64,000 nt of DNA, from positions 9,240,001 through 9,304,000 of the forward strand of contig CM075990.1 in the NCBI GenBank assembly GCA_038087875.1, written 5' to 3'. A program made the translations under genes and the position numbers. Shown piece by piece: positions 7,651-53,200 of this stretch. The stretch comes from Malacoraja senta (taxonomy: Eukaryota). How positions within the stretch are numbered: position 1 is the first letter of the stretch; the number at the start of each line of letters is the position of its first letter. A model generated the notes under the pieces. That model did not search any database, was not told the DNA's origin, and saw only the letters and a list, made by a program, of their open reading frames with translations.

Positions 7651-8177
7651 TGGTGTCAGAAGTGGGATTCGAACCCACGCCTCCAGTTGGCCCGCCACGC
7701 CAGCGTAACATTCCCGCACCCGCGAGGGACAGCCCACGTCGCTGCCCCAACTGCAACTTCGCCAATCATCAATTTAATGTTTGCCCTGCGCTGGGAAAAT
7801 CTTGCAATTTCTGTAGGAAGCTGAATCACTTCTCCGCAGCATGTCATTCCAGGGGCCAGCCTGTCCCTGCTCCGAGAAGGAGTCTAAACAACCTTGCTGT
7901 GACTGATAGCGCTCATGGTTCCCAGTACCATTCAGACAAACTCCCTGATTCTGATAACAGTTCCTCCCATGATGAATCGCTTGTTTTTGCACTTTTGGGT
8001 GCACCTGCTTTGATATCTGATCCCTCAGTGCGAGTTACTGTGAATGGAATGACCTTTCCTGCAAAGGTCAACACGGGGGCGTTTGCCAATGTTATGTCAT
8101 TAAGCCTCTTTGAGCAGATAAGATCTGGCGAGAAGGTTACTGCCGACGACTCCCGCCTTCGTGCCTATGGGGGGGGG
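7650..8177 (+). CDS. gag: Truncated Gag (two CCHC knuckles) plus protease N-part with catalytic D>N
   Basis: CPNCNFANHQFNVC and CNFCRKLNHFSAAC; AKVNTGA in place of DTGA; frameshift at G9 run 8169-8177. Confidence 0.85.
7651..7685 (+). promoter_or_regulatory. Extended primer-binding site complementary to the 3' ~35 nt of tRNA-Leu(CAA), including CCA
   Basis: TGGTGTCAGAAGTGGGATTCGAACCCACGCCTCCA is the reverse complement of TGGAGGCGTGGGTTCGAATCCCACTTCTGACACCA. Confidence 0.9.
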
Positions 8178-9206
8178 AGTGCTCGTACCAGTCGGGAAGG
8201 CAACCCTTATCTGCACAGTTCTGAAGACCTCTCGGCCCCTCTCTTTCCTCCTGCTGGAAACTGAGAATGTTACTCTGTTGGGCGCCAGTGCGTGCCAGGA
8301 CCTCGGTTTGGTTTCCTTCCACCGCGATATCCACCTGGTGCAGGGCCCCATGGACCCCATGAGCGAGTACCCTGATCGTTTTGACGATGTATTGGGCAAA
8401 CTACCCTTCAATTACGAAATCGATGTGGACCCGGGGGTCATTCCGTTAATCCACCCGGCTCACCGCATCTCCTTTGCCATGAAGGACAGGGTAGAGTCGA
8501 CTCTGCGCCACATGGTGGCCGTGGGCATCATCAAGGAGGTGAGTGATCCCACCCGGTGGGTCCCCACCATGGTCGTTGCTGCTAAGAAGGACAAGAGTGA
8601 GATTCGGATCTGTATAAACCCCAAGGACCTGAACCTTGCCATCAAGCGCCTGCACTACCCCATGAGAACGGTGGAGGACGTCGCTGCACTGGTTGGCCCA
8701 GCCACTGTCTTCTCTGTCCTTGATGCCAAGAGCTCTTTCTGGCAGATTCCACTGGATGAACGTTCCTCCTTCCTGACCACTTTCGGTACACCTTTCGGCA
8801 GGTTCCGTTTCCTCCGCATGCCTTTCAGGATCAATTCTGCCAGCGAGGTTTTCCAGCGCACCATGGAACAGCTATTTACCGGTCTGCCGTGTGCTATCAT
8901 CGTCGATGACATCTTAGTGTACGGGAGAGATGTCGCTGAGCACGACCTCCACCTCCGCCAAGTCCTGGATAGGGCTCGTGAGATCAACCTCAAACTGAAC
9001 CCCAGAAAGTGCCGTTTCCACGTCCCGGAGGTCACGTACGTGGGCCACGTTTTCACGGCTGAGGGTCTAAAACCAGACCCACAGAAGACAGCTGCGGTCT
9101 CGGGGATGCCAGCCCCGGTCGACGTGCCCAGCCTGCAGCGCTTCTTGGGCATGGTGAACTACCTGGGGAAATTAATTCCCGACCTCAGCGAGCTGAGTGC
9201 GCCCCC
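8161..9206 (+). CDS. pol: Pol: protease C-part and reverse transcriptase
   Basis: FSVLDAKSSFWQI, FLRMPF, IIVDDILVYG, LQRFLGMVNY; frameshift at C5 run 9202-9206. Confidence 0.92.
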
Positions 9207-11212
9207 TGAGGGAACTGACCAAGAAGGACACTGCCTGGGTTTGGTACCCGCAGCATCAGACAGCCTTCGATGCCCTGAAGTCCCGGCTGGTTTGCACCCC
9301 CACTCTCAAGTTCTTCGACTTAAAGCGCCCCATCGTCCTCACCTGCGATGCCTCAAGTTTCGGTCTCGGTGCCGCCTGCCTGCAACTCTACGACCGCCTG
9401 CAACTACCTGTCTCCTACGCTTCCCGCACCATGACCCCTGCCGAACAACGCTACACCCAGATCGAGAAGGAGCTCCTTGCCGTGGTGTTTGCCAGCTCGA
9501 AGTTCAAGGACTACATTCTGGGTAACACTTTCACTATTGAGACCGACCACCAGCCGCTGGTCACAATCTTGAACAATCCGATACACGTTGCCTCTTCCCG
9601 TTTGCAGCGTATGATGCTGCAGCTCCAGCGCTTCACGTTTCGAATCGTGTACCGAAAGGGCAAAGACATGTTTGTGGCCGACACGCTGTCCCGCGCACCG
9701 CTGGCATCTACTGACCGCCACCCGTACGAATCGTCCGACCTGATGGTGCTAAACGTTAACTTTGTGCCTTCCCGGCAGATGCAGTCCCTGATTCATCACA
9801 CTGCCAATGATCCTGCCCTGCAACAGCTTGTAGACGTCATCCGTCGTGGCTGGCCTGACCGTCGCTCATTCTTGCCGGCTGGTGCTGTGCCCTACTTCCT
9901 AGTCCGGGATGAACTTGTGCTGCATGCCGGCGTGGTGGTGAAGGGCCACAAGGTGGTGGTGCCTGCTGCGCTACGGGACCACTATTTCCAAACTGCCCAC
10001 GGCGGCCATCCCGGAGCCGATGCCACCCTGTCCCAGGCCCAGAGCCAATTTTATTGGCCCGGCATGGCACAGGACATCCGGGATAGGGTCTCCGCCTGCT
10101 CAACCTGCAATACCCTCTCTCCCCACCAGCAACGCCAGCCACTCCTGCAACAGCCTGCCCCCGACCTGGCGTGGATGGCGGTCGCTACTGACATATTTGA
10201 GTGGCGTGGCAAACATTTCCTGGTCCTTGTAGACTCCTATTCCAGCTGGTTCGAGGTGGATCAGCTGCACTCCCTCACTTCTGCTGCTGTCATCGGGAAG
10301 CTGCGCCGCAACTTTGGGATCTTTGGCCCTCCTGTGACTTTGCAGTCTGACAACGGCGGCCAGTTCTCGAGTGCGGAGTTCCGCGCCTTCGCTGCCGCCT
10401 GGAACTTTCGCCACATCACCAGCAGCCCTGAGTACCCGCAGAGCAACGGCCTTGCTGAGCGCGCCGTCCGCAGTGCCAAGGAACTGTTGGAGCAGTGCAG
10501 ACTGTCGCACTCGGATTTTTACCTGGCCCTACTGAATCTCCGCAATATTTCTCGTGACTCTGCCCTGGGCTTGCCTGCTCAGCGGCTCATGTCCCGCACC
10601 ACACGCCCTCCGATCCCTGTCTCCCAGCGATCCCTAGAGCCCGCGGTCCGCAGCCCTGCGGAGCGCATTGCCCAGAAACAGGCTATCCAGAAGCGCTCCC
10701 ATGACAAGTCCTGCCGTCCCCTTCCGCGTCTCTTCCAGGGCCAGGTCGTCCGGATGCAGTCCCCCTCAGGACACTACCGGCTGGCTGTGGTCGTCGGCTC
10801 TGCAGACTCTCCGCGGTCTTACCTGGTTGACTACGAGGGTACCACCTACCGCCGGTCCCGCCAGCATTTGCTGCCGGTCAACGAGCCCGCTCCGCCTCCT
10901 GCAGCCCCTTTTGCACCTCCGGTTGCTACCTCTCTGCCTACCGCTCCTCACATGCCCAGAACTCTGCCCTCTCAACCCTTGGTGCCCCGTTCTCCCACTG
11001 CTCCTACCTCTCCCGCTCGCGTGCCCGCTGCGGTGCCCGTTTCTCCTCCCCGGTCTCCTCGTCCTCCCTCTCCTGCTCATTCTCCTGCCCGTTCCCCTAT
11101 CACCGCTCCTGCTCCTGTCCCTGCTCTTCCTGCGGAGGGGGGAGAGGGCGGCCTGCGTACCTGCTCCGGGCGGTTGGTCAAGCCGCCTATGCGTTACGGG
11201 GAGACTGCTTGA
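9197..11212 (+). CDS. pol: Pol: RNase H, integrase and Pro-rich tail
   Basis: LTCDASSFGLGA, IEKELLAV, ETDHQPL; HHCC (HGGH...CSTC); DDE core (TDIF, SDNG, NGLAER); C-terminal RTCSGRLVKPP. Confidence 0.93.
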   Translation: MRPLRELTKKDTAWVWYPQHQTAFDALKSRLVCTPTLKFFDLKRPIVLTCDASSFGLGAACLQLYDRLQLPVSYASRTMTPAEQRYTQIEKELLAVVFASSKFKDYILGNTFTIETDHQPLVTILNNPIHVASSRLQRMMLQLQRFTFRIVYRKGKDMFVADTLSRAPLASTDRHPYESSDLMVLNVNFVPSRQMQSLIHHTANDPALQQLVDVIRRGWPDRRSFLPAGAVPYFLVRDELVLHAGVVVKGHKVVVPAALRDHYFQTAHGGHPGADATLSQAQSQFYWPGMAQDIRDRVSACSTCNTLSPHQQRQPLLQQPAPDLAWMAVATDIFEWRGKHFLVLVDSYSSWFEVDQLHSLTSAAVIGKLRRNFGIFGPPVTLQSDNGGQFSSAEFRAFAAAWNFRHITSSPEYPQSNGLAERAVRSAKELLEQCRLSHSDFYLALLNLRNISRDSALGLPAQRLMSRTTRPPIPVSQRSLEPAVRSPAERIAQKQAIQKRSHDKSCRPLPRLFQGQVVRMQSPSGHYRLAVVVGSADSPRSYLVDYEGTTYRRSRQHLLPVNEPAPPPAAPFAPPVATSLPTAPHMPRTLPSQPLVPRSPTAPTSPARVPAAVPVSPPRSPRPPSPAHSPARSPITAPAPVPALPAEGGEGGLRTCSGRLVKPPMRYGETA

Positions 11213-11305
11213 ATGTTTCAAGTTTTTCCTGCCGGTGTACGCGCGGGTGTGTTTCTAGCGTATGAGTCGTGGTCGCACTGTCATCGTTGTAATGTTTTGT
11301 TTTCC

Positions 11306-11316
11306 AAGGGGAAGTA
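11306..11316 (+). promoter_or_regulatory. Polypurine tract
   Basis: AAGGGGAAGTA immediately before the 3' LTR. Confidence 0.8.
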
Positions 11317-11527
11317 TGTAGTTCAGTGCATGTTCCTTTAACATAGTGACCTCACCACTACTAACCGCTCCCCATTATCTTCAGTATAATTGTAGCCTCC
11401 ACACCCCCAGCTCTCTCTCTAGCTCCAGTGATGGACCACGAACAGCTAGGGCACTATGTGTGTGTATGATTACTATGTCTGCAATAAACTAGTGGTGAAG
11501 ACTTCACGTGTCTGACAAGTCTTTACA
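11317..11527 (+). repeat. 3' LTR
   Basis: Near-identical to 7436-7650; followed by TSD ACTTG. Confidence 0.95.
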
Positions 11528-21703: not shown

Positions 21704-23941
21704 CAAGCAAATTTAAACTGTCATTTTTTATAAATATTTGGGTGCTTAAAAAGTCTATCCTGGAGATATCAGTACAGAATTCTGATATATTTCTTTGAGA
21801 CAGATAGATGAAACAGCTCAGCTATATTGCTTGTACACAATCCAATACTCCCATAATTTTGCACAGAACAATTTCAATATTGTCTAGATAATTAATTCAA
21901 GTCTCCAATTCAGTAAGCTGACCATCACACTAACATAGTACTTACCTTCAGTGTGTTCATTACCTTTCCCCCACTCACCTATTAATTCCTATGCACCCAA
22001 TTTCCTAGATCAGATGAAGATACTGACTATTATGGGAACCCTGTACAGACTCTTGTTGCTCTTCCATCAGCGCATACTTTTCATGTAAACCACAGGTACA
22101 TAATTGAAAAGTAACGTTTTTTAGAGGCTCTTTGAGTTAAACTCAGAGACCAAGTTGAATGGTAAAATGTGACTCAAACAAAGCAATATATTTGAACAAA
22201 CAATAATTGTACATGTTAGATCCAAAGTACACAAAAGCACAAAGTTTATTTCAGATAAGTGTTTATGGTGTAATGGAAACCAATGCACCTTACTTAGAAG
22301 AACTGCAATAAGGGCACCAAATGAAAATAAAGCTTTTGTCCTGGCACTGAGAGTAGGAGAGTGATATTCAAAAAAGGTACTGCCACTGAGGAAATATAGT
22401 CGCATATGGGAAATAAAGTCAGAGAAATGAAAATAAATGTTTCTTCAGAACGACGTTGAGGATTCCACATACCAGACGAGATGGAATTAAAAGATCCCGA
22501 AGTTCTATTTTAAGTTTAAGGATTGGTCCCAATATCCTGAGCAACATTCCTCCTGCAACCAATACCAAAAATGGATAAATGGCTAATTGCCAATGGTAGA
22601 TTTTACTCTGTGCAAATAGAATACATCGCAATAGAGGCTGCAAGTTCATGAGCAGATCACTGACTGTGAAATTCTGAGAATCCAGAAGTATAAAATTGCA
22701 AATTATCCTTTTAACAAAGCAACTAGCAATTGAGCCGAATGACCATTATCACAAAGCGCTTCATGCTTAGATGCCGTTATCTGTGATGTTTCCTGCTTGT
22801 AATTTTATTTCAAGATCTTCTGTGTTCTTCATCTGCGGTCTTCATCTGTGCTGTAAATTTCTATGATTCTCGAAGTAATTGGAGATTCAAGGACTGAACA
22901 ATTATTTCTTCTTACTGATTGATTTCTTTCTCCTTTATTTTCTTCATCAAACACAATTGTTGGCCCAGCTGAATTACCCGAGAAATTACATATCATTTGC
23001 CTTTATAAATCTATGCACAATAATATATATCCTTTTTCCATTCTTCCTCTGACTTATCTTCATAAGTAGTAAATGTTTGAAAAAAATGTTTTTAAGCTGC
23101 AGTGAAGAGGGAGGAATAGCAAACATTCCTCTTTGTTCTTCCCACCCCTCCCTCTTCTCTGGAACATAAAGCAGGCTTGTGAGTAACAATTCCTCATTCC
23201 GGTAAAACGTCTGGTCACTTTCTCTCTCTTCAGGTGGAATCAACCAGCTGAATATTTACAGTAATTTCTGTCTATATTTCAGATTATCAACATCTACTGC
23301 TTCTTGATCCCCATGTGATTTTAAATTTGTGAATGCTAACCTTTCACAAACATTCAATATCAGTTCTGACAGCAGGTGACAGGGCTGACTGGACCTTACC
23401 AGCTCTCATAGCCATTCTAACAGTATACCTGGCTACTTGTGCCATGACAACTCTTATGATGCACCATATCATACTCTGGTGCAGGGGCTAAGGGCTAGCA
23501 TGCATTTAATCATGCATCTCAAAGATTATTTAGACATGATGGTATGAACCGTGATTTAGTTGTTTGCAAATGCCACAAAAACTAGCCGTGTGGTTGAAAG
23601 TGAGCAATGCAAAAAGTAGACTGCAGACTTGCCAGCTAAGTGACAAATGGTATGAGTTTTAAAGAATAGCATGGCATGGCATTTAGTAAATATAGAAATT
23701 ACAAGTGAATGTGCAACAAATAATATGATCATGAGTTTATGCTTACAGGTTATGAAAGGGCATACGGAAGGTGGATATGGTTTAAAAATATATTTATTCA
23801 TGGTAAATCATTGGCAAAGGCAGCATTTGTTGTGCATTCAGGAAATAAAGGGTATACAAGATACTTCCTTTCACAGGATAAGGCATAGAAGAGCAAGGAA
23901 TTCACACTCAAAGTGTATTGCCACAGGCAATGATGGTCTAA

Positions 23942-24463
23942 TTCTATACGGCCATCGTAGAGTCTGTCCTCACCTTCTCCATCATGGTCTGGTTTGGCTC
24001 AGCCACCAAGCATGACATCCGGAGGCTGCAGCGAATCGTCCGATCAGCTGAGAAGGTTGTTGGCTGCAACCTTCCCTCCATTGATGAACTGTACACTGCG
24101 AGGGACAGGAAGCGAGCGGGTAAGATCATCTCTGACCCCTCCCACCCTGGCCACAAACTCTCTGAATCACTTCCCTCTGGAAGGCGACTCCGGACTGTCA
24201 AAGCTGCCATAGCCAGACATAAAAACAGCTTTTTTTCCACGAGTAGTAGCTCTACTCAATAATCTGTATCCTCCTTTCGCTCTGGTATTTTATTTAAATC
24301 ACATGTTTAATCAATAATGTTTTATTAATAATGTTTAAAGTTTTATGTGTCATTCCAAACTGTTACTGTATGTCATGTTGTTACTTGCGGGCAGAGCACC
24401 AAGGCAAATTCCTTGTACGTGAATACTTGGCCAATAAACGTATTCATTCATTCGTTCATTCAT
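23942..24463 (+). mobile_element. Rex1/Babar LINE 3' end
   Basis: FYTAIVESVLTFSIMVWFG...RLQRIVRSAEK...LPSGRRLR; AATAAA followed by (ATTC)n. Confidence 0.88.
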
Positions 24464-25124
24464 AAACACTGACCACATCAAAGAAACTGTCGACATTTGC
24501 AATCACTCACAAGAAGGATGGGGCTTCACTGGAGAGAGAAATAAGAACATTTGTGAGGATTATTTTTTTCCATCTGGAGGATGGAAACTCAATGTCTAAA
24601 GAGTAGTTGAGTGGTGCAGTAATATATTGGCTATTCCACTCATCTTAAGCCATCCTTGTGCTCATTTCCAAGTTTGTGAACCCTCTGACCATCTTCTGCA
24701 ACTTCAGTCAATATACAGGTACATGCTTGGTATGGATATGCGCACTTCCTCGGTAAGCTAATGGACACATTCTGATATGTCAAAATACATACATTGCCTG
24801 TAGTTGAACATAAAACTTGTGGCTGTTTAGTTTAGTATTAATGGGTACTGACGTACAGTGAAAACCTTTTGTTGCATGCAATCCAGTCTAGCAAAAAACT
24901 GTACATAATTACAATCAAACCCTCCATTATACAGATAAAGGGTGTAGCATGTGGTGTAAAATAACGTCTGATAAAGTCCCTCAAACCTGCGCCACTACTC
25001 AAGATGATCATTGCTGATCTATGCCAGCTATGAAAAGTAATGAACAGAATTAGATACTCCACAAATCTTTCCTTTTCCTATAGCTTCATAGGAGATAAAT
25101 TGAATCTCGCTCAAAACCACCAGT

Positions 25125-25834
25125 TGGCGCCAGCATTGGCTGCCTCGCCAACTCTCTGTCTGTCTTTTCCTTATTTGTGTTTGTTTTGTATGTGTTAAAT
25201 GTATGTTTTTTTAGTGTTCTTTAGCTTGTTTATGTATGGGGATGGGGGGTGGGGGGAGGGGAGTTAGTGGAAACTTTTTCTAACCTCATACCTCGATGGA
25301 GATGCGATATTTTCCCGTATCGTATCTCCGTCCGCACTGCGATCTAACATTGTGGTGTTGGCGGCCTTTGCTGGAGATCGTCCGGAAGCTCCATCGCGGG
25401 AGCCTGTGGACTTACCATCACGGAGTTCGCGATCCCTGTCGGGGGTCGTCTTTGGCTCCAACCATGGGAGCCTGCGCATCTTTAACATCGCAGAGCCCAC
25501 GGTCTCTGGTTAGAGACCGACATCGGGGACACCAAGCTGCAGGAGTTTCGACAGCCCAGATGCGGGAGTTTCGATCACCCCGACGCGGGGGCTTCGATCG
25601 CCCCGACTGCGGATGGCTCGACTGCCCCGACCACGGGAGAATAAAGAGGAAGGAGATTGGACCTTATTGCCTTCCATCATGGTGAGGAATGTGGGGAATC
25701 TGCTGTGGTGGATGTTTATGTTAATTTTTATGTCGTTTTGTGTCTTGTTGCTATTTTTTAGTATGGCTGTATGGTAATTCAAATTTCACTGTACCCAAGG
25801 TACATGTGACAATAAACTGACCTTGAAACCGTGG
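25125..25834 (+). mobile_element. Non-coding structured retroposon, copy A (Rex1-type tail)
   Basis: TSD AAACCACCAGT / AAACCATCAGT (25114-25124, 25835-25845); tail GACAATAAA plus CCTTGAAA-like repeats; homologous to copies B-D. Confidence 0.8.
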
Positions 25835-28800
25835 AAACCATCAGTGCAGTTTTCTTTCTTCTCAGTGAAATACTTTACAGAAAAGCTTTCTGCCAAACAT
25901 CCTTGACATGATTACATTTTGACCCACTAGTTGTGTCTGATCACAATACTCAATTATTCTCAAAGCAATACTATGCTTCATTTCTCATTGAGATGTTATA
26001 TTTCATTCTTTCTGCCCTACTGCTTATGTTATTTCATTCTTTCTGCCCTACTGCTTATGTTATATCATATTCTCAATCACGAACTGTGGCTACAGTTTGA
26101 TTTGTATTCTTCGCAACAAAAAACAAAGAAAAATTCACTGTTTACCACCAGGCGATTATAATCATAACGCCAAGAATATTCTCAGCATCTCTTTATTCAT
26201 CATATATTATGACAATTCTTAGAGGCATCAACCATGGTCCAGTCTTGCAGAGTGTGCACATCTACTCTTTCATTGACTTACTGCTACTACAACATCATTT
26301 CCAGGTTATGGTTGATAAGTTCACCTTTCATTTGAAAATATTTCCTCTATCAGGGTTCCCACTAATCCTCCCACGTGTTCTAGCCATCCATACTTGAGAA
26401 GGTAGCCCAGTTGCTTAATCACTGTCTAGCACATGGTGAAGACATCAGTGCCTAAAACAAGTTCAATTTGTGCCACGTGGACACTAATATGAAAACAAAA
26501 CAATGTCAAAAATGCATGTTTCCAATTCCAAAGTTACAAAATTAATTCACACCACCAATTATATTTATATGTTTATGATAATCCATTACAATGCAACCAG
26601 CTGTTGGTATCAACATTTGTTGATCTGAAAGATGTTAGTTTCACCATCTATCTTTGATGCGATTCACCAGACTCCCCTGTCAATTAAATATTCAGGATTG
26701 TATTTTTCAAGATAGAAAATGTGCTTTGCTTTGCTCATTCTATTTTGAGACAATAGCCCACTATTCTACACCCTGATCTCAAATGCTCAGTTGGAGGTAC
26801 ACTCCAGCATTGGAGACTTGCTGCTACTTGTAATATCAATCATAGTATGAGGAATGCCCATGCATAAATGTTAAACTCAAACACATGGTTAAATATCAGG
26901 AACATTTTCTGCCTCCGTATATGCACATTTCATTTTCCAGAATAGTTCAATAGATTTTCACAGTGTGCATTGTTACAACAATTAGTAAAATTGACATGTT
27001 TGAAGTTCATGCAACTAACATATTGACCATAATCAATAAACTACTTTGAAAGAAAATACTATATTTATGGAACACTTTTTGCATTTAGATGGATAGATTT
27101 ATTGATTGATTCCTAAATCCTTCTGGGAAATATTTATTTGCAACCATCACCTTCCAATATGTAATGAATGTATCCAAACACCTTTACCATGTGAAATCAT
27201 TCAATCTTTTAAAAACAAGAAATAATTTATCGCCAGTAATGACTTTGGATAATTATTGATAAAGGTACCCATTAAATAGCCCACTGTGTTAAATGTTTTC
27301 TGATGTCTCTTTAAATCTCGCCTACCGCAGATCCTGTGGAGGATCTGTTGTGCAGGAGAAGAACTTTGGAATTAAATACAAAAATGTACTATAACAAATG
27401 ACCCCCTTCAATATTGACTGTCTTAAATATTCTTAATTTTATCCAGTCACGACTCACTGGACATAGAGAACACGTGCAAACAAAGTGTATGGAACTACCC
27501 ATCTTTAAATGTGCGTTCTTATGCAGAACTAAGCCTTTGGACTACTTCCAAAATAATTCATGGAATACCCGATGAGAGTTTCTGAATTACCTCCACTGGA
27601 CTGAACTGAATTAACATCAGAAACGATATCATATCACCTCGACATATGATGGCTTTACTCGTCACTATTAGAAAACGGAGAGTAATTTATACGAAGATAA
27701 ACTTAAAATGCTGGAGTAACTCAGCAGGACAGCATCTCTGGATAGAAGGAATGGATGACATTTTGGGTCGAGACCCTTTCTCACACTACATGCATGATTT
27801 ATACGCATGGATATGTGCACGGCCGTACTAAATGTTTTCACTGCTAACATCACATGTCGAATTGTATAGGCTATCTGAACTATTCCATATTATTTATGAA
27901 ATTATCTTTTTTGTACCTAATCTTTAGGTCAAGGCTGACCTGGTTCTCTTCTATGGGCTTGAACATGGCTGATAAGGCGATTGTCAGATGTGCAGACACT
28001 GCCACAGATGGAGCAGTATTAGACTGGAGAATACTGCTTACTGAATAGTGTGGGAGGTGGCACCCTCCTCCTGCCTCCTTATCATCTGCCTGGACTTTTC
28101 TGTGGTAGCCCAGACTCCCATTTTGAACAACACTATTTGATCGACATGGCAAATTCATTTATAAAGACATTCAAAGGAACTTGCAACTTAACACTGATTT
28201 GTACCTTAGCTTTCCTCTCCAGATGAGATTGGATGCATTATTTAGAAACGACACATATTTGGTATGGAAAATAAAATATCAATAAAACAGAGGACATTAA
28301 ATGTTCTCAAAAATCATGTTTCATAATAGCAAACCATGCCATACTACCTGCTCTGGAACCTACCAAGTGCTTTTGAAAAGCAAAACAAAAGAAAAACAAA
28401 TCTATATTTGTTCGAGAATATAAATTTTCAGTGCAATGGATATCCTGAAAATCAAGCAGGAAGAAGATAGTTCGATTAAACAGGCCCTGGAACCATGCTA
28501 AATAGCTGATTAGGAGATTATGCGATGGAACATAGTGCAGATAAAGGAGTTATTCAACATTTTGAATCACAGCAGTGGCCCTATTGGCACATCACATCAA
28601 TTGTGGAGGACAAAAGAGAGGGTGGAGTTCATGCTCTCAATCTATAGATATTTCACTGGCCCAGACACTTGAAAGAGCTAAAATGGATCAAAACCAAAAT
28701 GATTTGAGTTAAATTTACAACTAAAAGCTGTTTAGGTGAGTGCCTCAAAGAACCTTTCAGGGTTATTACAAAAGTAAAGGATGAAAAGGGGAATATGATA

Positions 28801-30872: not shown

Positions 30873-32495
30873 CAACACTGGGAACAACACACATTGGATC
30901 ACCCTGTCTTCCGTACCCACATATAAAGTGGCGTTTGTTCATGTAAGGAAGCTAGAATAAAGGAAACAACGAGGAAAAAAATCTTGAAACTCAAGAACCA
31001 TTGATGATACTACATGCCTACACCTCTCATCTGTGCGGAAGGTATTTTCAAGCCCAGAGTGGTCTAATTATCTATCTCCATGCACGTTAAAACACGATAG
31101 ACTAGATGTCAAAGGGCTTACTTGAGAACAAATGATGGGTCTAAGAATAGAAGAATCCAAATTTTGGCCCAATGACAACGAAAAAAATGGCAATATATTT
31201 CCAAACTGGGAAAGGCTATGGTTCCTTACCCTTGTTGCAGTCAGCAAGGGTTTTGAAGTGCTATTGATGAGGCCTTCATGAATAATTGCTGCACATTTTT
31301 TGAATAATAATGCCATTGAATGTCAAGGACAATCACAACCCAAATCCTTGTGGCAATAAATCCACAGCAAATGCATCAAAGATGTTGGATTAGCATAATC
31401 ATTCTCAAAATATGTAAAAGCATAAGATTGGAAAGGTGGAGTAAGGAGAATTTACGCAGGCATGGGGCATACTTTTGAAGACAAACTGACTCCTCCACTT
31501 TCAGAACTGGTTTGGAGTTTCACTCCATTTCTCCCGATAATTCACAGCAATTCTTTACAAATAATCACAAACCCCAAACTCTTAATGCTATATTGTTGCT
31601 CACCAGTTACTAGGATGCATTTGAAACTAATGTCACATTTTTTTCTGTACTGCTTTGGATTCTTTTTCTAAACTTTGCATCAGTTGATCAAAACCACTGA
31701 GGTGTTACTAATACCAGTATTAATGAATTTAATGTGCAATATAACAGAATTGAGACAATTCAGCAACATGCTCTTCACAAACATCAGCATACTTGAATGC
31801 ACAATTATTAATATACAAATTGTAAATTGGACTCGTCTTTGAAAATAATTGCAATGTTAATTATCAACATAAAGTTACCGAATAATACAAAAAAAATACA
31901 GCTAGCAGGAGGCCCACATACATTCATGTATTATATAAATAATGCTCACTTTCATAACAGTGCATAATGTGTAGTATAGTATTGCCAAGGAAAAAGGAAC
32001 ACATTATAAATAATAGAACAGTAAAAAGTGCAAAAGAACAGAGGGATATTAAAAAGCATATCCAGAAATTCTTACAGGCAGCAACACAGTCAGATACAGG
32101 AGTTAAGGCAAGTTACTTGCAGGATATTTGCCTTTATAGCCATGGCACAAAGTGCATGAACGGGGTCATCGTGCTAGACCGATATAAAATATTATTTAGG
32201 ATACAGCTAGGAAACTATGTACAACACTGTGCAGCACACAAAACGATGCGTTGAGTGTTTACAAAGACGATGCCATGGCTGGAGAATTGTATTGCTCCTT
32301 TGAAACAATGGAGCCCGAGGCTAAATTTAACAAGGTATATAAAATCATGAGAGATCCAAGTCAAGAGAGTTTATTGTCATGTGTCCCAGATAGGACAATG
32401 AAATTCTTGCTTGCTGCAGCACAACAGAATATTGTAGGCATAAATAGAGAACAGATCAATGTGTCCATATACCATAGAATATATATATATATATT

Positions 32496-34373
32496 TAGAA
32501 TTTAGAATTTAGAATGCCATTTATTGTCATTTAACACCAAGGTTCAACGAAATTTCGTTCCTGCAGTCATAACAGCAAAATAAAAAAAATAAAAAAACCA
32601 CACAATTAACACAATTACACACAAACATCCATCACAGTGAATCTCCAAACACCTCCTCACTGTGATGGAAGGCAAAAGTCTTATCTCTTCCCTGTTCTCT
32701 GTTCTTTATTCTTCTCCCGCAGTCAAACTGCTGCACCGAGCTGATCGAGGCTCTTGATGTTGGAGCCCCCATTCAGGCCGCGCCTGGTGATGCAAGGCCG
32801 CGCTCCGGGTCTTGATGTTGAAGCCCCCGGTAGCGCCAGCAAGTCCAGCGGCCATTTAAAGCCGTGCCGGGCGATGTTAGACCCCGCTCCAGGCCATCTT
32901 GAGGAACGGCTGCAAAACAGCAGCCGTCCGTTAATTGCACTTTTTTACTAAGTTTTTTTATTTTTCTTTAAGTCTTTGTTTTTATTTATTTTGCCTTTAA
33001 TGTGGGGGGATCAAGGGGAAACCACTTCCTGGTCCCTACCTGGTCGGTGAGGCAGCCTTCTCTCCGGCTGCCCATTCGACCCGTCCTCGCGGCCTACCAG
33101 CGGGCGTGGAGCGGCGTTTCCTGGCGGGAACCGCACAGCACCCTCAGCTTCGGTGGCGGCACGGCGCTGGAGCGCTACTGTGCAGCGGAGCGGGCGATGC
33201 CTTGCCTGGGTCGCCGCGCTGGACCGACGCTCTGGAGCTCCGGTGAGCTGGACCGCCGAGCTCAACACCTCCGGGACTGGAGCGACCATTCGCGGGCGGC
33301 AGCGCCGACTCCAACACCGGGAGCCTTGAGCTCCAAGTCGGCGCGGCCTTATCGGCTTCAGGTGCTGCGGACGCCTGCGGGAAATCGGCCGTTCCAGCCG
33401 TAGTTACGGCCTCCGGTGAGGGATGCGGCCGTTCCATGTGGCCCAGCTGCTGGAGGACTCTCCCGACGCCGGGGCTACATCACCCGGCGAGAACGGCCAG
33501 GATCATCGGGCCTCCGTAGAGGCAATAGCGGGGGCTTCATTTGGCCTGACTTTTTTGGGTGAACTGGGGCTGGGGACTGGATATTGTGCCTTCCCCCACA
33601 GTGGAAATCATTGTGGGGGGATGATTTTTGTATGTAATTGTTTGTAATTGTATTTGTTAGTCTGTGTTCAAGATGGCGGTCGGAGGGGAGAGTGGACGCT
33701 GGCGTTAAATTGCCGCTGCTCTCTCCTCAAATTGTGCTTCTGATTTTCTTTTTTTTGTGTTTTTGGAAGGAATTCTGTCCCTGATTTATGTATTGGTCTT
33801 TATAACCTATTTTTTTTTAAATTCTGATTATATGTTTTCTATAAATCTCTGTATGGTGTCCTTGAGACCTCGGTATAAGGCGCCCGTAAATAAAATCCAT
33901 TATTATTATTATTATTATCCTCAACCCCGCAACTCGGGCGGGAGATGTTGCCGTTGCGGGAGCCCCGAAAAGCGGTCTCCCACCAGGGACCCGCGAGCTC
34001 CCGATGTTACCGTCCACCGGGCCGGCGGCTGGAGCTTCCGAATCTCCGGGGTCGGGTAGCAGCCGCGCGCCACCACAGCTCTCCACGCTCCGAACTCGGT
34101 CAGCTCCGTGATGGTGAGTCCGCAGGCTCCGCGACTGGAGCCCCAGGTCGCTCCGGTTGGAGACCGCTCCACGGTGCTAGGCCCCAACGACAACGGAGAC
34201 CCGACAGGGAAAAGGTCGGGTCTCCCGTGCAGGGAAGAGACTTAAAAGTTTCCCCACCCATACCCAGCTAAAAAAAACACTCAAAACACTACACTCAAAC
34301 GAGACAAAAAAAAATTTAAAAGACAGACGGACTGCAGAGGCCGCTGCGACGTGAGTCGCGCCGCCTACCGCCT
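32496..34373 (-). mobile_element. Non-coding structured retroposon, copy B (Rex1-type tail), interrupted by copy C
   Basis: Tail GACAATAAA plus (TTCTAAA)n; perfect hairpins at 34195-34225 and 32628-32669. Confidence 0.78.
32901..33917 (+). mobile_element. Non-coding structured retroposon, copy C (L2-type tail)
   Basis: Same architecture as A, B and D; ends GTCCTTGAGACCTCGGTATAAGGCGCCCGTAAATAAAATCCA(TTA)n. Confidence 0.78.
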
Positions 34374-36929
34374 ACAAATACACACACATAAATAAACAGA
34401 TAAAGTGCAATAGGCTGTTATAGTTCAGAGTTTGTTTGAAGTTGTGTTTAATAGTCTGATGGCTGTGGGGTAGGAGCTGTTCCTGAACCTGGATGTTGCA
34501 GATTTCAGGTTCCTGTACCTTCTACCAGATGGCAGCAGAGAGATGCGTGTGTGGTCAGGATGGTGTGGTTCCTTGATGATGTTGGTAGCCTTTTTGAGGC
34601 AGCGACTGTGATAGATCCCCACGATGGTAGGGAGGTCAGAGCTGATAATGGACTGGGCAGTGTTTACAACTTTTGCAGCCTTTTCTGCTCCTGGAAGCTC
34701 AAGTTGCCGAACCAAGCCACAATGCAACCGGTCAGCATGCTCTCTACTGTGTACCTGTAGACGTTCGAGAGAGTCCTCCTTGACATACCGACTCTCCGTA
34801 ATCTTCTCAGGAAGTAGAGCCGCTGATGTGCTTTCTTTATAATTGCATCCGTGTGCTGGGACCAAGAGAGATCTTCGGAAATATGCACGCCCAGGAATTT
34901 GAAGTTCTTGACCCTTTCCACCATCGACTCATTGATATAAACGGGACTGTGGGTCCCCATCCTACCCCTTCCAAAGTCCACAATCAGTTCCTTGGTTTTG
35001 CTGGTGTTGAGAGCCAGGTTATTGTGCTGGCACCATTTGGTCAATCGGTCGAACTCACTTCTATACTCTGACTCGTCCCCATCAGTGATATGTTCCACAA
35101 CAGTAGTGTTGTCGGCGAACTTGATGATGGAGTTTGCACTATGTCCAGCTAAGCAATCATGACTATAGAGTACAGCAGGGGGGTGAGCACACAGCCTTGA
35201 GGTGCTCCTGTGCTGATTGTTATCGAGGATGACACATTTCCACCAATACGGACACACTGTGGTCTGTGAATGAGGGTCGAGGATCCAATTGCAGAGGGAT
35301 GCGCAGAGACCCAGATCTGAGAGCTTAGTAAGCAGCTTGGTATCCAGAGAGGATTAAAAAAATAAACTATTTCCCGCAGCAGGGAGATCATAGGTTTTAA
35401 TTAATTTGTAAGTGGATGAGGTGAAAGTGGAGAGCAATTGGTACTGAAGGCCTGAAACTCACTGCGTGATTGGATGTTGGAGGTAGCTCTCACCGCGTTT
35501 GAAAAGTACATGAATACATGGGAACTGAAATACTGCAGGGCTCTGGACCAAAGGTTTGGAAAATGTGTTCCTTCTGTAGTCTAATTTTCAGTTATTTCCA
35601 TGAATTTGAAAACATTTTACATACAATAGAACAATACTATTCCAACATGAATTTGTCAGTTCATTGAAGTGCTAATCGAAGGGGAATAAATAGATTGCCA
35701 GAATATATTTAGAATCATTTTAGAACTGTAATATAACAGTTGAACAAAATTTTATTCAGCCATTGAAATACATTTTCAGCACATTGCCATTGTCATATAC
35801 TCATACAGCCTTTTGTCTCATCACATCCATGCCAATCATTTTGCCCACTAAAATTGTCTTTGACTGATAATTTATCTTTGCTGCTTGAGTTTTCATGAAA
35901 AGACCATTGAATAAAAATAAAACTGTTTTAATCTAAGATCAAACCATGGTAAAAAAAAATGCAAGAAGAACAAACCTCATAAGGTATGCAAATAAGATTT
36001 GCAAGCATTCAAGCAGATTAAAGGAGAGGTGTTACAATTAGAAAATGGGAGAAATGGTACTTTGGAGTATAAACATCATTACAGTGAGCCTGTCTTAATA
36101 CTGTGATTATCAAACTCAGGGCTAGCTCTGATGTTGACACGTGGCAATACTGAAATTGTGTTAAATCACATTAAGAAAAATCCAAAGCTTTTTAAGGATG
36201 TGGAACATTAACAATAAAGACATTCATTAAAGCTTTCCTATTTGCATTTTTACGGAAAACACAATGACTTCATTCTCATATAAATGTTAGCTAATATACC
36301 GGCTGATAAAGAGAAAACTTAAATATTTTGATTCAGGATTGATTGCACTCAGAATATTTTAGATATGTAGATTCCTGCATAAACATTTTTAGTAGGACTA
36401 AACCACAGTTTACTATGATTACTAGCTTAAATTGTCTAAAATTTCCATCCGTAGCGTAAACACAAACGCGCATTACAAATATAAGTTGATTTCCCTGACA
36501 GAAAACAAGTATTCAAAAATAACAACATTTAGATAATTTGCTATCAGTTCTTGGCAAGCACACTGTAAATTTATGTTATTCAAGAGGGAAGCTTCAGTTA
36601 TGACAGATGTTGTATGACTGTTCAGCATGCAGCATTATGCAGGATGGACAATAACCATTTCCTGAGCTTGATTACAAGCACCATGGAAAGCTGCAGAAAT
36701 CAGCATCTACAAAATGTAAACAAATATTTGTAGACTGGATTTGTGTATCAAAGACTTTAATTTTCCAGAATAGAACTTTTCAGCATTGCAGGGTGAAGCA
36801 GCCATTCACATGATGTAATATTAATCGATATAAATAGATATATTGCTGACACATTTTAATAGTAACTCAGTCAAATAATTTGTTCAATGAAGGCCAAGTA
36901 TTCAGAAAAATCACTGAGCAAAAGATGAT

Positions 36930-38040: not shown

Positions 38041-38802
38041 CCAATGTACGAAGAGAGCTCATTAAAGCAATCTAAATTTTCATAAATCTTGTCTACCCAA
38101 GATATGTGATTCACTCACTTTCAAGAAGATTCTGTGCAGGAAAATAGCATCTTGCAGAGATCAGGGACTACGATGAAAAAGTAAAATAGATTACAAAATA
38201 ACATAAACCTTGGGATAATACAACTGTCCGAGGAGGTTTTGGTTAATGAGGCTTGTCTGCATCAAAGCAAGATTGTATTTCATTCATAAGAAGGGGTTTT
38301 ATATTTTAAATGCACTAATGTTGGAAATAATAGGAATAGAATTGCAGTGGCCTCAAGCAATCCTCTACCCACATCATGAAGCACCGTGACATACATCATT
38401 TCAAGTGCCTGTGCAGATTGCCATGGCAGAATAATGGCACCAACTTTAAGTCTTTACGTGGTAACAGCTTCTGCTTTATAAAGGTCCATGGCAAGGACAG
38501 CATCGGCAAACACAGAAAATAAAGTTGACGTATAGTACCGGTGGTACAATGACACAGCACATAATACTTCTGTGTCACAATTTCAGCACTGGATTTGACC
38601 TGGTTACAGGGAAATAAGTGTGTGGGGGGGGGGGGGGGGGGAAGAGGAATGGTATCATTCGGATCCTCAGTCTAGACATGATGGGTTGAATGGCCTCTTT
38701 CTACAATTTGAAGAAATATGAAACATTTTACTAAATAGTGGAGCAGGCTGAATAACATAATGACAAGCAGGCTAAATGTAATACAACACCAAACTTAAAT
38801 AT

Positions 38803-39788
38803 TAATAATAATAATAATAATAGATTTTATTTATATAGCGCTTTTCAGGACTCAAAGTCGCTTTACAATTGAGAGTCAGGAATAAACAAAACAAAATAGA
38901 GCAGTAAGACAGAGGGGGGGGGGAACATGGGACTAAGGGTATGCAGAGGTGAAGAGATGGGTCTTGAGGCGGGACTGGAAGATGGTGAGGGACTCAGAAT
39001 TTCGGACCGGTTGTGGGAGGGAATTCCAGAGCCTGGGAGCTGCCCTGGAGAAGGCTCTGCCTCCAAAAGTGCAGAGGTTTGATTTCGGAGTGGAGAGGAG
39101 ACCAGCTGATGTGGATCTGAGGGACCGTGAGGGTTGGTAGGGGGAGAGGAGGTCAATGAGATAAGGGGGGGCCAGGTTGTTGAGAGCTTTGTAGGTGAGG
39201 ACCAGGATTTTGTAGGTGATCCGGTGGGAAATGGGAAGCCAGTGAAGTTCTTTGAGAACTGGGGTGATGTGGTGCCAGGATTTGGTGTGGGTAATGAGTC
39301 GAGCGGCTGCATTTTGGACCAGTTGGAGTCGTTTGATGCTGCTGGAATTGATTCCGAAAAGAAGAGAGTTACAGTAGTCCAGTCGGGAGGAGATGAAGGC
39401 ATGGATGAGTCTTTCAGCAGCGGGGGGTGTGAGAGACGATCTGATTTTTGCAATGTTGCGGAGGTGAAAAAATGATGTTTTGACAACATGGCGGATGTGA
39501 GGCTCAAGGGAGAGGGTTGAGTCAAGGATCACGCCAAGGTTGCGTGCCTGAGGAGATGGGGAGACAGTGGTGCCGTCGATAGTGAGAGTGGGGTTGTTAA
39601 TTTTAGTGAGTGTTGATTTGGAGCCAATGAGGAGAAATTCTGTTTTGCTACTGTTTAATTTAAGGAAGTTGAGTTGCATCCAAGATTTGATGGCTGATAG
39701 GCAGGAGTTGATATGGGAGAGAGGGGGGTGGTGGGGGGACTTGGTGCTGAGATAGATCTGGGTGTCATCAGCATAGCAGTGGAAGCTG
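38803..39788 (-). mobile_element. L2-clade LINE, 5'-truncated, ORF2 end uninterrupted
   Basis: FHCYADDTQIY, RNLGVILD, SRLDYCNSL, LHWLPI, APRLWNSLP; tail TGTAAAGCGACTTTGAGTCCTGAAAAGCGCTATATAAATAAAATC(TAT)n. Confidence 0.93.
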
Positions 39789-42164
39789 CATGGTTGATTA
39801 ATTTGGCAAAATAGAAAAGTTTGCTTCAGGTTGGTATCTGATAATAATTCAATGCCATTTCCCAAAACAGGTGATAGAAACATAAGGTGGCAAATCTAAT
39901 AATTTGACAACATACTCCAGGCTTAAATTGTTGATAATTATAAAGTAGCCCTAATCCTTTCAAAAGGATACTTTGTAACTAACAATTGTTCCACTCTTTC
40001 AATTAATTGTTATAAAATATATTTTGGAAAGCAAATAACATACTTTATTAATCAAGGTTTGTGTCAGTGTTACATAATTTAACAGTGTATACCTTTCACA
40101 CTCTGAAGAATAATTTATTCTCCAGTTCATGTGCCTTTTTTAATTCTCCCATCCTAATCAATCCTTCCACTTCCATAGAGCAATTGGAATTTAGGCTCGT
40201 TAATAATGGATTACTCTAATGTTACTTGAGGCGAAAATACTGATTTGGTTTCTATATGAATCTTCCCAGCCAAGAACTGGAATTAAGAATGCAAGTTCCT
40301 CAAAAAGTCCAAAATATACATTACTACATCAAAGGGTTTCATGTGTGAAAAAACCTGATTATGAGCTCTTTAGGTAGTTCAGTGTTATGAGAACAGTAAA
40401 TAATCGAGTTACTTTAAGAACTGTTAGAGTTTCATTCTACCTGTAACTCACCATATGTGCATATGACAATAAGCTCAACTGGACTTGATGTATACAAGAT
40501 AAACCTGGTAATGTCAATGGCAAGTTGTAACTCATGAAACAAAGTTTAAAATATGGTCGACTGGTGAAAAATCATAACTGCAAAGAAGTTCCTCTACTCT
40601 TTCAATGTTCAGATAAATTGATGGAAGCAATTGCAGATGGCAACAGAGTTTTTCTGCAGCCTCCAAAGGTTGTTACATAACTACCAGTAGTTGCAAGTTT
40701 TATACTTAGACTGCATACCAATCACAACTATGCATTAAGTATAACCAGAGGTTGCTTTTGGCTTTGGAGAATTGAAACCCCATCCACCATTTCACTGAGA
40801 AGCATCAGAGAAAAAAGTTCTGTTGAATTTTGCTTTTTAAGTGTGGAGATGTTGAACTTAGATATTGATCCAAAAATAGTGTATGTTTAGTGTGTATTTT
40901 AAAGTGTGGAGAACCAAGTAGCACATTTGAGGAAAGGATGGATAATAGTAAGATATTTTAGAGAATCAATATAATTTATCCTGCAGGTTTTATTACAGGT
41001 GTAAAAGGTAATGGATGGGACACCACCAAAATGGACTGATGTAAAAGCATTTGACAGAATGGCTAAGCATTGTCATAATAAAAATAATTGACGCTGTTTT
41101 GGCAGACAAAGCATTTGGTACATATTTCAATTTCTGTTACTTCCATGAGCTCCTGGAGTTGGGATGTTCATTAAATTTTATACATGACAGGCAAGATCCA
41201 GATTCGTTTAAATAATTCTGAAACTCCCAAATCACCCAGGCTATGCAAGCGACTCTAAATGCCTTCCCCTTCAGGGATAGGGAATCTGCAACGGCTTTGG
41301 TCTCACCAATATCAGCAATATCATAATTTAATATAATTATGTTTAATAATTAATGTTAAAATAATTGAACAAGCAAAAACTGTGTCTGAACAGTTATTCA
41401 TCAATATATTTTATTTTTCAAAACAACTATAACCTAAATGCCCAGGAAATTGATCTCTCTCAATGAAATGAGAAAGGCTATTGCTAGTTGCCACTAGTGA
41501 ATCCAACCTTGAAGAGAACAATAATGTGCAGCTTATTAAGCAGAATATACACTGAACACAGACAGTAATGTTGGACCATGATTATTTCATTTAACATCTA
41601 CATCATTAGTGGCATTCTTGTGATTATTTTAAAATATTAAAAATACAAAGTAATGTTTTATTTATAACATAGAGAAGAAATGTGATAAAACAAAATGGTT
41701 TTGCACAAATGGTTCACCCTCTTCAGCAAGCAGCCTGAACCGATCAGAAATCTGCATTAAAATGCGAAATGTGTTATCTGGGGAGGGAAAAAAAATCATT
41801 CTTCCCTCTACAATTCTTTGATTTAACAGGGCCCGAGTGGAATCCAGAAAATAAATCACTACCTAACCAAACAGGAAAAAATAAAAACCTTCTGATTATC
41901 AATTTGGCAGAAATCTAAAAAGTAGCATAATAATTTTTAAACCAGGAAAAAGCAGAGACTGAATATTCTTAGCCAGTCTCAAAGTTAAAACTGAGTTAAA
42001 TCTGGTTCTTTTAATGTCAGATCATAAGAAGCATTCAAAAAATCTTAAATTATCAAGAGATTTTTATTATTGGAATTTTAGTGTTATATCTCAGATATTT
42101 ATTTCAACCTTTAACCAGAAGGAATGACCATCTTTAAATAGGCTGTTTTATTGTCTTAAATGTA

Positions 42165-52589: not shown

Positions 52590-53200
52590 ACGACCCGATG
52601 TTCAGGCCCTCTCGCCGGGATGATCGGAGCACCGGCGTCGGAACGGAAGAACACTATCAGCGGCTTGGAGTTTCCGAATCAGCCACTTCTTACCGGAGAC
52701 CGCGGCTTCCGAGTCCACAGGCCGAGCTGGGTGGAGCTCCAACACTGCCGATCCCCGGCAAAGGATCCCAGGAATCAGCGATGTCAAAGTCAGCGCCGTC
52801 CGCGGCTGGAAGCTCCGCAGACCACAGTTCCATTGTGTTAAAGTCAGCAGGCCCAACACTCCGGAGCTTCACACGGCGATCCCGGGTAAGGCATCGCCCG
52901 CTCCGCGATGGTAAATCAGTGCTGCGCCGCTGCTGAAGCTCTGGCCGGTCTCCGGCAGGAAAGGCCGCGCCAATCCAGATGGTAGGGCGCGAGGGGGAGG
53001 GCGAAGATGTGACTCGGAGAATAGACGCATCCTCGACCAGAAAGTGACTGAGAAACGGTTTCCCCTCTTTCCCAATCCCACGCACCCACTTAAAAAAGAC
53101 TAAGAAACCTCCAGAAACATACTTTAAGACAGACTAAAAATAACAAAAAGGGTGAAAGGACTTTCAGCTGCTGGCATGGCTGCCGCGCGCGGCGCCACCC
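52590..53200 (-). mobile_element. Non-coding structured retroposon, copy D (3' end lost)
   Basis: Colinear with copy C (GCGGAGCGGGCGATGCCTT; CCGACGCCGG; CCCGGCGAGA..GGCC; CATCGGG). Confidence 0.75.

Follow-up and report, generated by a model that had tools for sequence, protein, structure and literature searches.

Probable LINE-dependent retroposons with exchanged LINE ends and a shared, partly folded body in Malacoraja senta

Short internally deleted elements (SIDEs), or bipartite non-autonomous long interspersed nuclear elements (LINEs), are described as rare and have so far been derived from RTE, Ingi, Vingi and R2 LINEs and from insect CR1/Zenon, an example being Persaeus, a SIDE of Lepidoptera that stems from the CR1-group LINE Zenon (PMC6740152). 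Here we analysed four copies (A to D) of a repeat family in a 64,000-nt window of Malacoraja senta DNA (contig CM075990.1), the letters being read within this window and all positions being window positions. An initial annotation had seen in these copies a retroelement class of its own; they do appear to be non-autonomous and LINE-mobilised, and the category into which they fall is the described one of SIDEs or bipartite non-autonomous LINEs rather than a new class. The reading that we favour, with moderate confidence, is that A to D are subfamilies of high-copy, non-coding, LINE-dependent retroposons that join a LINE 5' end, a shared non-LINE body and a LINE 3' end, the body being folded and the ends exchanged. 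All four copies are present in the window, and C is nested in B in opposite orientation:

25125..25834, forward strand: copy A, complete, with a Rex1-type head, the shared body and a Rex1 tail (assigned by homology and repeat depth)
33918..34373, reverse strand: 5' half of copy B, with a head (34342-34365) like the 5' ends of skate Rex1-1, -2, -9 and -12, and GGAAAC at 34248-34253
32496..32900, reverse strand: 3' half of copy B, with units of about 58 nt, a 14-bp 3' hairpin (32628-32669) and a Rex1-type tail
32901..33668, forward strand: body of copy C, within B, with a head that is without the first LINE-like block, GGAAAC at 33017-33022 and a 3' hairpin at 33592-33620
33669..33917, forward strand: second module of copy C, with a CAAGATGGCG start, a long hairpin, a T tract, an L2-type stem and an (ATT)n tail
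52590..53200, reverse strand: copy D, without the 3' part, with a head at 53178-53198, an internal duplication of about 126 nt and a probable cryptic splice acceptor before 52949

The homology of A to D was assessed by pairwise local alignment, with C removed from B beforehand and each score compared with the maximum of 100 composition-preserving shuffles of the window. Five of the six pairs exceeded every shuffle: A-B (118.5 vs. 55), A-D (148.5 vs. 46.5), C-D (210.5 vs. 43.5), B-D (67.5 vs. 55) and B-C (58.5 vs. 50). The only failing pair was A-C, which was not significant (47.5, below the shuffle maximum of 53); nhmmer joins C to A at E=1.6e-4. Among the blocks named in the annotation, ACCATCRCGGAG was found in A, B and D and GCGGAGCGGGCGATGCCTT in C and D, and GGAAAC together with the CTANCA block is present in 4/4 copies at a spacing of 72-77 nt. 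The claims that the copies are homologous and of one layout, that D is without 3' parts and that the core is CpG-rich are thus all borne out, the CpG observed/expected ratio being 0.88-0.97 in the copies vs. 0.48 for the window. Neither a profile nor a covariance model found a fifth copy in the window.

Copy A belongs to a repeat of very high copy number, and its edges are sharp in the three DNA runs analysed. In 18 DNA runs from 7 organisms, 24-30% of the words sampled from A were found, and three of these runs and one polyA RNA run were analysed. Contigs aligned to the A region numbered 14,951, 11,012 and 13,142 in the three DNA runs, and in run X1 the summed contig depth was 1.5e3-9.3e5 in A vs. 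11-42 in single-copy flank bins; summed depth is not copy number, and only its order of magnitude was used. Depth in every bin of A exceeded that of the flanks 100- to 30,000-fold; at both ends it fell thousands-fold, the steps being sharp and lying at 25120 and 25839. The head of A is as deep as the structured domain described below, and in all four runs the family reaches its greatest depth at the hairpin at the 3' end of the body together with its T-rich tract. Loose contig ends beyond 25830 agreed poorly with one another (0.41-0.49), as expected for a position at the end of the element. Contigs cross the junctions of A in two organisms, suggesting that this insertion is shared and old. The 11-bp target-site duplication (TSD) with one mismatch that had been reported for A was recovered at the following positions, and a match as good occurred in 13/2000 random pairs from the window:

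25114..25124, forward strand: left copy of the A TSD, 11 bp, one mismatch
25835..25845, forward strand: right copy of the A TSD, in which bases one to five are the same as the junction between two tail units

Microhomology between tail and target is therefore likely at the right copy. No TSD was found around B, C or D. C opens with 5-6 nt that repeat, as reverse complement, the bases to the right of its tail (32899-32905 and 33918-33924), a small inverted copy of the target with no direct duplication.

The head had been described in the annotation as a GC hairpin followed by a T tract. Judged from sequence comparison, it is no new kind of head but the 5' terminus of an ORF1-less Rex1/L2 LINE (ORF, open reading frame) in A, B and D; in A it corresponds to the following feature:

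25125..25237, forward strand: head hairpin and T-rich tract of A, a Rex1/L2 5' end without ATG

Full-length proteins of the Rex1 type open at the extreme 5' end with MAPxMAA or MAARxxAAA, followed by a hydrophobic stretch (T-rich in DNA) and then YxR. The hydrophobic start (residues 10-36 of P0046, P0130 and P0134), which precedes YxR, resembles a signal peptide or membrane anchor. When a profile of 27 Rex1-type protein N-termini was run over the 89,153 six-frame positions of the window, the heads of D, B and A ranked 1st, 6th and 23rd, and shuffled heads equalled their scores in 0, 10 and 18 of 2000 cases, respectively. The 579-kb supplement of PMC13343379, in which each curated consensus is visible over its first 400 nt, points in the same direction: by eye, 12/19 little-skate Rex1, 3/14 stingray Rex1 and 2/5 little-skate L2 consensus sequences have an ATGG(C/T)G head at their start, in most cases with a T tract behind it. 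In the same supplement, an 11-mer of the B head occurs seven times, 7/7 at Rex1 5' ends, an 11-mer of the D head occurs once, at a Rex1 5' end, and a 10-mer of the A head occurs once, at a Rex1 5' end with identical spacing. The B head fits the GGCGGCGCG...GTCGCAGCGGC type and the heads of A and D fit the TGGCGCC...GGCNGCC type, and the latter pattern recovered, as one of its six matches, the 5' terminus of an autonomous LINE of Rex1 type (L072; tblastn E 1e-101). Paired repeats opening with AAAGATGGCGCC...ATGGCCGCC were also seen (L073-L076, G001), yet these are not LINE 5' ends.

The start ATG is missing in the heads of A, B and D. At 25124, the position of the A of this ATG, G was found in 6239/6732, 3111/3226 and 2398/2587 depth units and in 13/13 reads, that is, in all four runs; for A, the loss of the ATG is thus the state of the family. 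TISU (an initiator of translation at a short 5' UTR; UTR, untranslated region) is a YY1-dependent element, SAASATGGCGGC, that acts as a combined initiator of transcription and translation (PMC2518114, PMC3177215). Several Rex1/L2 LINE starts match it, with CAAGATGGCGGC agreeing at 12/12 positions in three skate Rex1 consensus sequences (LeuEri_Rex1-1, -2 and -12). Such a link between TISU and LINEs may explain transcription and translation at nearly no 5' UTR. TISU-like LINE starts, also L072:62-90 and window positions 33669-33680, often have a second ATGGC motif behind them. The second module of C begins with CAAGATGGCG, which agrees with the TISU consensus at 11/12 positions, and forms a hairpin of some length (z -3.8); AAGATGGCG by itself is no rare chance match (21/100 shuffles). 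In our reading, the last 250 nt of C are a short bipartite unit of L2 type that has been joined to the rear of a body. In the catshark consensus ScyCan_Rex1-3, a branch-like motif, a pyrimidine tract and CAG lie near the 5' end and are followed by GC-rich repeats (PMC13343379).

Behind the head, the body follows the order T tract, H1 (with a GAAA cap in single-sequence folds), H2 and CTANCA block. In A its parts are:

25238..25376, forward strand: structured domain, with H1 capped by G-GAAA-C (25269-25274) and H2 as a stem (25298-25308 / 25319-25329) with a pyrimidine loop
25343-25349, forward strand: CTAACA block opening H3
25345..25630, forward strand: CpG-rich tandem units, degenerate units of about 70 nt and then 4 x 23 nt (25538-25630)
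25668..25775, forward strand: 3' body hairpin (behind TGCCTT) and T-rich tract

Helix H2 was examined in an unfitted alignment of the four sequences, which are 47-66% identical in the domain. Both sides of the stem had changed in 8/14 pairs, and 82% of the cells were paired vs. 36-43% with slid partners, a value as high as which was reached by 0/500 shuffles; the covariation figure leans upward because the structure comes from the same four rows. The 3' hairpin folds well in B (z -4.15) and C (z -3.27) with differing stem letters; that of A is decayed, and the letters of the family majority at 25680-81 restore its Watson-Crick pairs. Fold scores for the domain were z -4.2 for A, -1.2 for B, -1.7 for C and -1.8 for D, and the 200 nt behind the domain fold no better than shuffles (z -1.7 to +0.3). 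The annotation had called the family structured, with RNA structure conserved while sequence diverged. Both statements apply to particular helices, at least to H2 with its compensatory changes at 47-66% identity, and not to the domain as a whole, which is weak in B, C and D, nor to the head hairpin of D (z = +0.4). A long-range helix between the G-tract and CCTA appears in the folds of B and D only and is not claimed. A reading of CCTAA as part of the 11-nt GAAA receptor was rejected as it fails on the opposite strand. Beyond what the annotation had noted, the CpG-rich core is made up of internal degenerate repeats, namely units of about 70 nt and 4 x 23 nt in A, of about 58 nt in B and of about 126 nt in D; none was significant in C. 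In A, joints between contigs also reflect differences in the number of units.

The 3' ends of A, B and C are LINE-derived, as the annotation's term LINE tail implied; they belong, however, to two clades, Rex1 (A and B) and L2 (C). The features concerned are:

25780..25834, forward strand: Rex1-type 3' stem-loop of A, with TGACAATAAA (25807-25816) and a short repeat tail
34374..35353, reverse strand: 5'-truncated Rex1-type LINE hosting B (reverse transcriptase (RT) part and start of the 3' UTR), whose 3' end resumes at about 32350-32495
38800..39895, reverse strand: 5'-truncated L2-type LINE, its clade assigned from RT motifs, whose tail matches that of C

A bulged stem-loop is common to the tail of A, the Rex1 tail of the window and L023 (a nearly full-length LINE of Rex1 type, met in a prokaryote assembly as fish DNA), and its stem letters differ among them. 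The tail of B aligns with Rex1-type tails, and its fold is not above shuffles (z +0.2). The tail of C is identical to the L2 tail of the window in 30/31 nt. Hence, one body bears the tails of two LINE clades. B itself was inserted in the 3' UTR of a Rex1-type LINE.

The elements were also compared with other classes of short retroposons. In line with the annotation, which had seen no box of RNA polymerase (Pol) III and no match to short interspersed nuclear elements (SINEs) of the tRNA, 5S or 7SL type, no Rfam match was found over A to D at E<=1 and no strict A or B box in 4/4 copies, and the first T4 run lies at nt 41-53 in all four. A tRNA-Arg called by ARAGORN in C was rejected, being internal, rod-like in its fold and without an Rfam match. 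A to D contain no CUGANGA core of the hammerhead ribozyme, and an HDV-like descriptor (one mismatch allowed in P1/P2) gave no match on either strand. The verdict of no credible ORF likewise agrees with our results, since 6/6 element ORFs are without a Pfam family. The longest ORF of D has four matches among 1.84 billion proteins, the best being a predicted THAP3-like isoform of the little skate. In this isoform (X2, P0232), the C-terminus is a D-family copy that starts right after an AG (window 52949 and downstream, reverse strand), with a pyrimidine tract and the branch-like motif CTAC ahead of it; we read this as exonisation via a cryptic acceptor and not as a coding origin. The CTANCA block could itself serve as a branch point and render the elements prone to sense exonisation. 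As a further candidate, an intron within the element (GTATGT, branch-like CTAAC, acceptor) was considered: no such joint occurs among the joints listed (15 of 233), and RNA depth is not reduced there.

Searches for a LINE origin of the body were negative. Downstream of the head, no ORF for apurinic endonuclease and RT was found in A to D, and tblastn with 264 LINE proteins against the bodies gave no match at E<=0.02. Among 12 body motifs, 11 are absent from the supplement of PMC13343379 (first 400 nt per consensus), and the remaining one has a single unrelated match. By eye, the 3' hairpin is missing from 5/5 readable Rex1 3' UTRs. The suspicion, raised with the annotation, that the 5' part is simply a known LINE 5' UTR consequently holds for the first 30-100 nt and not for the 500-nt body, which was found in no autonomous element examined. 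The 3' hairpin pattern had 0 matches in viral contigs, where Rex1 queries gave no loci either; its 22 metagenome loci were all dismissed as chance, with no extension past the pattern. In three prokaryote assemblies containing fish DNA, A had no body match (best E 0.03, T-rich only); in five such assemblies, C had tail or T-rich matches only and the covariance model 0/5. As contaminated assemblies hold little host DNA, the absence of the body there says nothing on its distribution. Fish LINE DNA contaminates several bacterial assemblies (L023-L041), and 9/19 of these loci lie in one 17.8-Mb assembly labelled Metamycoplasmataceae.

RNA reads over A were 7.7-fold in excess on the strand that as a rule marks sense RNA, in 18/18 bins of the one polyA run (87.9 sense vs. 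7.6 over the head), and RNA of the adjoining repeat was near-symmetric between strands. The promoter motifs YY1, ETS and GC box occur 0-1 times each in the bodies.

Taken together, these data can be joined in a mechanism that borrows from established LINE/SINE biology. Since the T-runs right behind the head would stop Pol III, the elements would be transcribed by Pol II from within, with the CpG-rich body probably providing promoter strength, and the RNA with its ATG-less head would not be translated from the head. The 3' stem-loop would be bound in trans by the RT of Rex1 (A and B) or of L2 (C), and target-primed reverse transcription would follow, priming at short microhomology between tail and target. 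The body would be the heritable unit, in which H2 and the 3' hairpin are retained by compensatory change, and its folded RNA would most likely help to reach or hold the LINE protein, or to survive. Template switching could exchange heads and tails, which would account for heads of different Rex1 lineages and tails of two clades. We tentatively extend this to the idea, possible and rather less secure than the assignment of A to D itself, that the folded body defines a Pol II retroposon superfamily, a LINE-headed counterpart of CORE, V and Deu, that swaps heads (of different Rex1 lineages, with the TISU/YY1 ATG lost in each) and tails (Rex1 to L2) across LINE turnover and captures the protein of ORF1-less LINEs in trans.

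Several observations weigh against the favoured reading. No contig spanned a whole copy in the three runs, so that a full-length structure across many copies is a presumption. Domain-wide folding is strong in A only, and the covariation of H2 comes from four sequences, with the structure predicted from the same alignment. On the Rex1 profile, neither the main head of C (116/2000 shuffles) nor its second module (804/2000) is above chance; the other 5/6 matches of the A/D head pattern are non-LINE repeats, implying that the head motif is partly generic and of YY1 type, and two stingray Rex1 consensus sequences start without AAGAT (PMC13343379). This supplement shows 400 nt per consensus, and about 11 of its 33 skate and stingray Rex1 consensus sequences are 5'-truncated, which makes a LINE with this body conceivable; repeating subunits of 100-500 bp close to the 5' UTR are described for certain ORF1-less elements (PMC13343379). 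No transcription start site was found in the RNA run, which is from a different organism (1616/2105 reads less than 90% alike), and the sense bias could stem from copies serving as host 3' exons.

The most direct rival, which we regard as unlikely, is that the elements are plain SIDEs, internal deletions of a batoid Rex1/L2 lineage whose long 5' region and 3' UTR make up the body, the structure and the CpG-rich repeats then being no more than the promoter of this LINE. Both ends of the elements are indeed LINE-derived, repeating subunits lie near the 5' UTR in some ORF1-less CR1-group elements (PMC13343379), LeuEri_Rex1-7, LeuEri_Rex1-15 and HypSab_Rex1-6 have GC-rich repeated 5' regions in the visible part of the supplement, and depth over the region of the 3' hairpin is 6-16 times that over the head, as expected if this region is also present in many truncated LINE copies. 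Yet by eye and in motif searches the 5'-complete skate and stingray Rex1/L2 consensus sequences are without such a body in their visible first 400 nt, the repeat pattern of Rex1-15, with 3 mismatches allowed, finds no match in the window, one body is combined with different Rex1 head types and with tails of two clades, and no ORF entry occurs among the loose ends listed (24 of ~2535). Still less probable is a body that is the decayed and tandemly expanded N-terminus of a Rex1 ORF (hydrophobic stretch, KRGKR, RPPLPS), the helices being secondary. It would fit with GGGGGAAAC, which encodes KRGKR in 6/7 matches in the visible part of the supplement, and with D, which reads KRGNR ... HLRPPPRALPSGLA in the frame of the head; a Rex1 N-terminal profile (74 sequences) was, however, equalled by 229, 173, 14 and 20 of 250 shuffles for A, B, C and D, respectively, the YxR motif and the linker are absent, there is no tblastn match, and H2 covaries as RNA.

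A body that stems from a cellular structured RNA by capture, or that is a ribozyme so far unrecognised, would make the group SINE-like or retrozyme-like and its LINE head incidental; we consider this very improbable. The negative Rfam result at E<=1 for A to D and the missing CUGANGA core and HDV-like descriptor match speak against it, as does the head, which is retained and as deep as the domain, unlike what self-cleavage ahead of the domain would leave; the compact domain with its GAAA-capped hairpin, the fixed 72-77-nt spacing and the covarying helix would suit it, as would the H2 pyrimidine loop, which by eye could pair with GGAAA, and the link of bipartite LINEs to clades with 5' ribozymes (PMC5786205). 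Compatible with the favoured reading, and bearing only on novelty, is the possibility that the family already has a name in Repbase or curated Dfam, for instance as a non-autonomous Rex1 or an 'unknown' skate repeat, which we think doubtful. With so very many copies, the family can hardly have escaped automatic detection, and RepeatModeler libraries exist for batoid genomes; on the other hand, no description was found in the literature covered, which takes in few subscription papers, the accessible portion of a 2026 survey of the CR1 group has 0 mentions of non-autonomous elements (PMC13343379), the portion available of PMC5786205 lists RTE, Ingi, Vingi and R2 as the only sources of ORF-less bipartite LINEs, and the family is absent from the parts at hand of a Rex review and a 2026 ray genome preprint.

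The window as a whole is repeat-rich vertebrate DNA with fragments of LINEs that we take, from RT motifs and from homologue sets, to be of Rex1, L2 and CR1 type, together with Penelope-like pieces and a Gypsy-type element. Among named homologues, the one closest to its Rex1-type RT belongs to the little skate, Leucoraja erinacea (75%), and the cluster of an 89% match includes a little-skate protein, which points to a host like a skate or ray. Besides A to D, the window contains the following features:

7436-11527, forward strand: Gypsy-type long terminal repeat (LTR) element, with 95.8% identity between its 215-nt LTRs and with long pol frames that contain frameshifts
24820-24900, reverse strand: orphan high-copy Rex1-type tail
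23930-24460, forward strand, and 5242-6141, reverse strand: two further Rex1-type fragments, one with a (TTCA)n tail
4173, 12821, 12921, 15330, 27700, 30780, 42200, 42280, 43680, 45520, 50610, 50940, 54320, 57010 and 59160: a 90-nt repeat in about 15 places, often beside pieces of Penelope-like ORFs (43086, 49811) and probably Penelope termini or a SINE fragment
56646-56760: GC-rich near-palindrome with several sub-threshold Rfam microRNA matches, inside a larger GC-rich inverted arrangement
59845-59919, reverse strand: tRNA-Ala call by ARAGORN, which may be a SINE head

If the favoured reading is correct, the category would be widened by a vertebrate SIDE-like group that has thousands of copies, Rex1/L2 partners and a middle both conserved and folded. 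Such a group would offer a testable case for the origin and role of conserved retroposon bodies and for a non-coding RNA that competes for the enzyme of an ORF1-less LINE, and the TISU match suggests how Rex1/L2 LINEs start transcription and translation with hardly any 5' UTR. The elements seed CpG-rich sequence and splice acceptors, as with the D-family copy in the predicted little-skate THAP3-like isoform. Because the ends are shared, Rex1 coverage in ray genomes could be overestimated through these elements. Under the wider superfamily idea, they may form a sizeable share of the ray DNA masked as 'Rex1', which is given as 6.6% of the little skate genome and 9.1% of a stingray genome (PMC13343379).

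The nearest described category of A to D is that of SIDEs or bipartite non-autonomous LINEs, from which they differ by the conserved folded body and the exchanged ends. With SIDEs they have in common a LINE 5' end (A, B and D), a LINE 3' end (A, B and C) and no protein-coding ORF; with Pol III SINEs they share the tail of a partner LINE (A, B and C), and a small-RNA head and A/B boxes were not found. SVA/LAVA elements are similar in being non-coding, with a CpG-rich tandem-repeat middle of variable unit number, and in their transcription by Pol II, as proposed for A to D. They are mobilised by L1, polyA-tailed and composed of Alu and endogenous retrovirus parts, and no homology to A to D is implied.

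CORE, V and Deu SINEs, HE1/HER1 of sharks and rays, and Hpa I, SlmI and OS-SINE1 with RSg-1 tails likewise combine one body with different LINE tails (PMC3747384); all of these SINEs carry Pol III promoters and a head of tRNA or 5S type (PMC3747384), whereas A to D have a LINE head and T-runs impassable to Pol III. Bird SINEs (Suh 2016, via PMC5786205 and PMC7245038) resemble A to D in their GC-rich 5' part without a small-RNA head, and differ in bearing bipartite RTE tails behind a head whose origin is unknown, the head origin of A to D being identified and their partners being Rex1 and L2. Bipartite non-autonomous LINEs consist of 5' and 3' LINE parts, are presumed to be transcribed by Pol II and exchange tails between families, as is proposed here (PMC5786205, PMC7245038); in the accessible portion of PMC5786205 they are limited to RTE, Ingi, Vingi and R2, with 0 mentions of Rex1, and are without a conserved non-LINE body unless a Pol III head has been gained. 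The closest likeness in build is to Persaeus, which also has LINE ends, no ORF, no Pol III promoter, a high copy number, a middle without clear LINE homology and transcription presumed from the LINE 5' end, and in whose description, as far as available, the partner clades Rex1 and L2 are unmentioned (PMC6740152). Persaeus measures about 260-320 nt, and between lineages there is no homology of its middle, which is specific to the taxon (PMC6740152); unlike Persaeus, A to D have a middle of about 500 nt that is homologous across subfamilies and contains a covarying helix, combined with varied Rex1 heads and with Rex1 or L2 tails.

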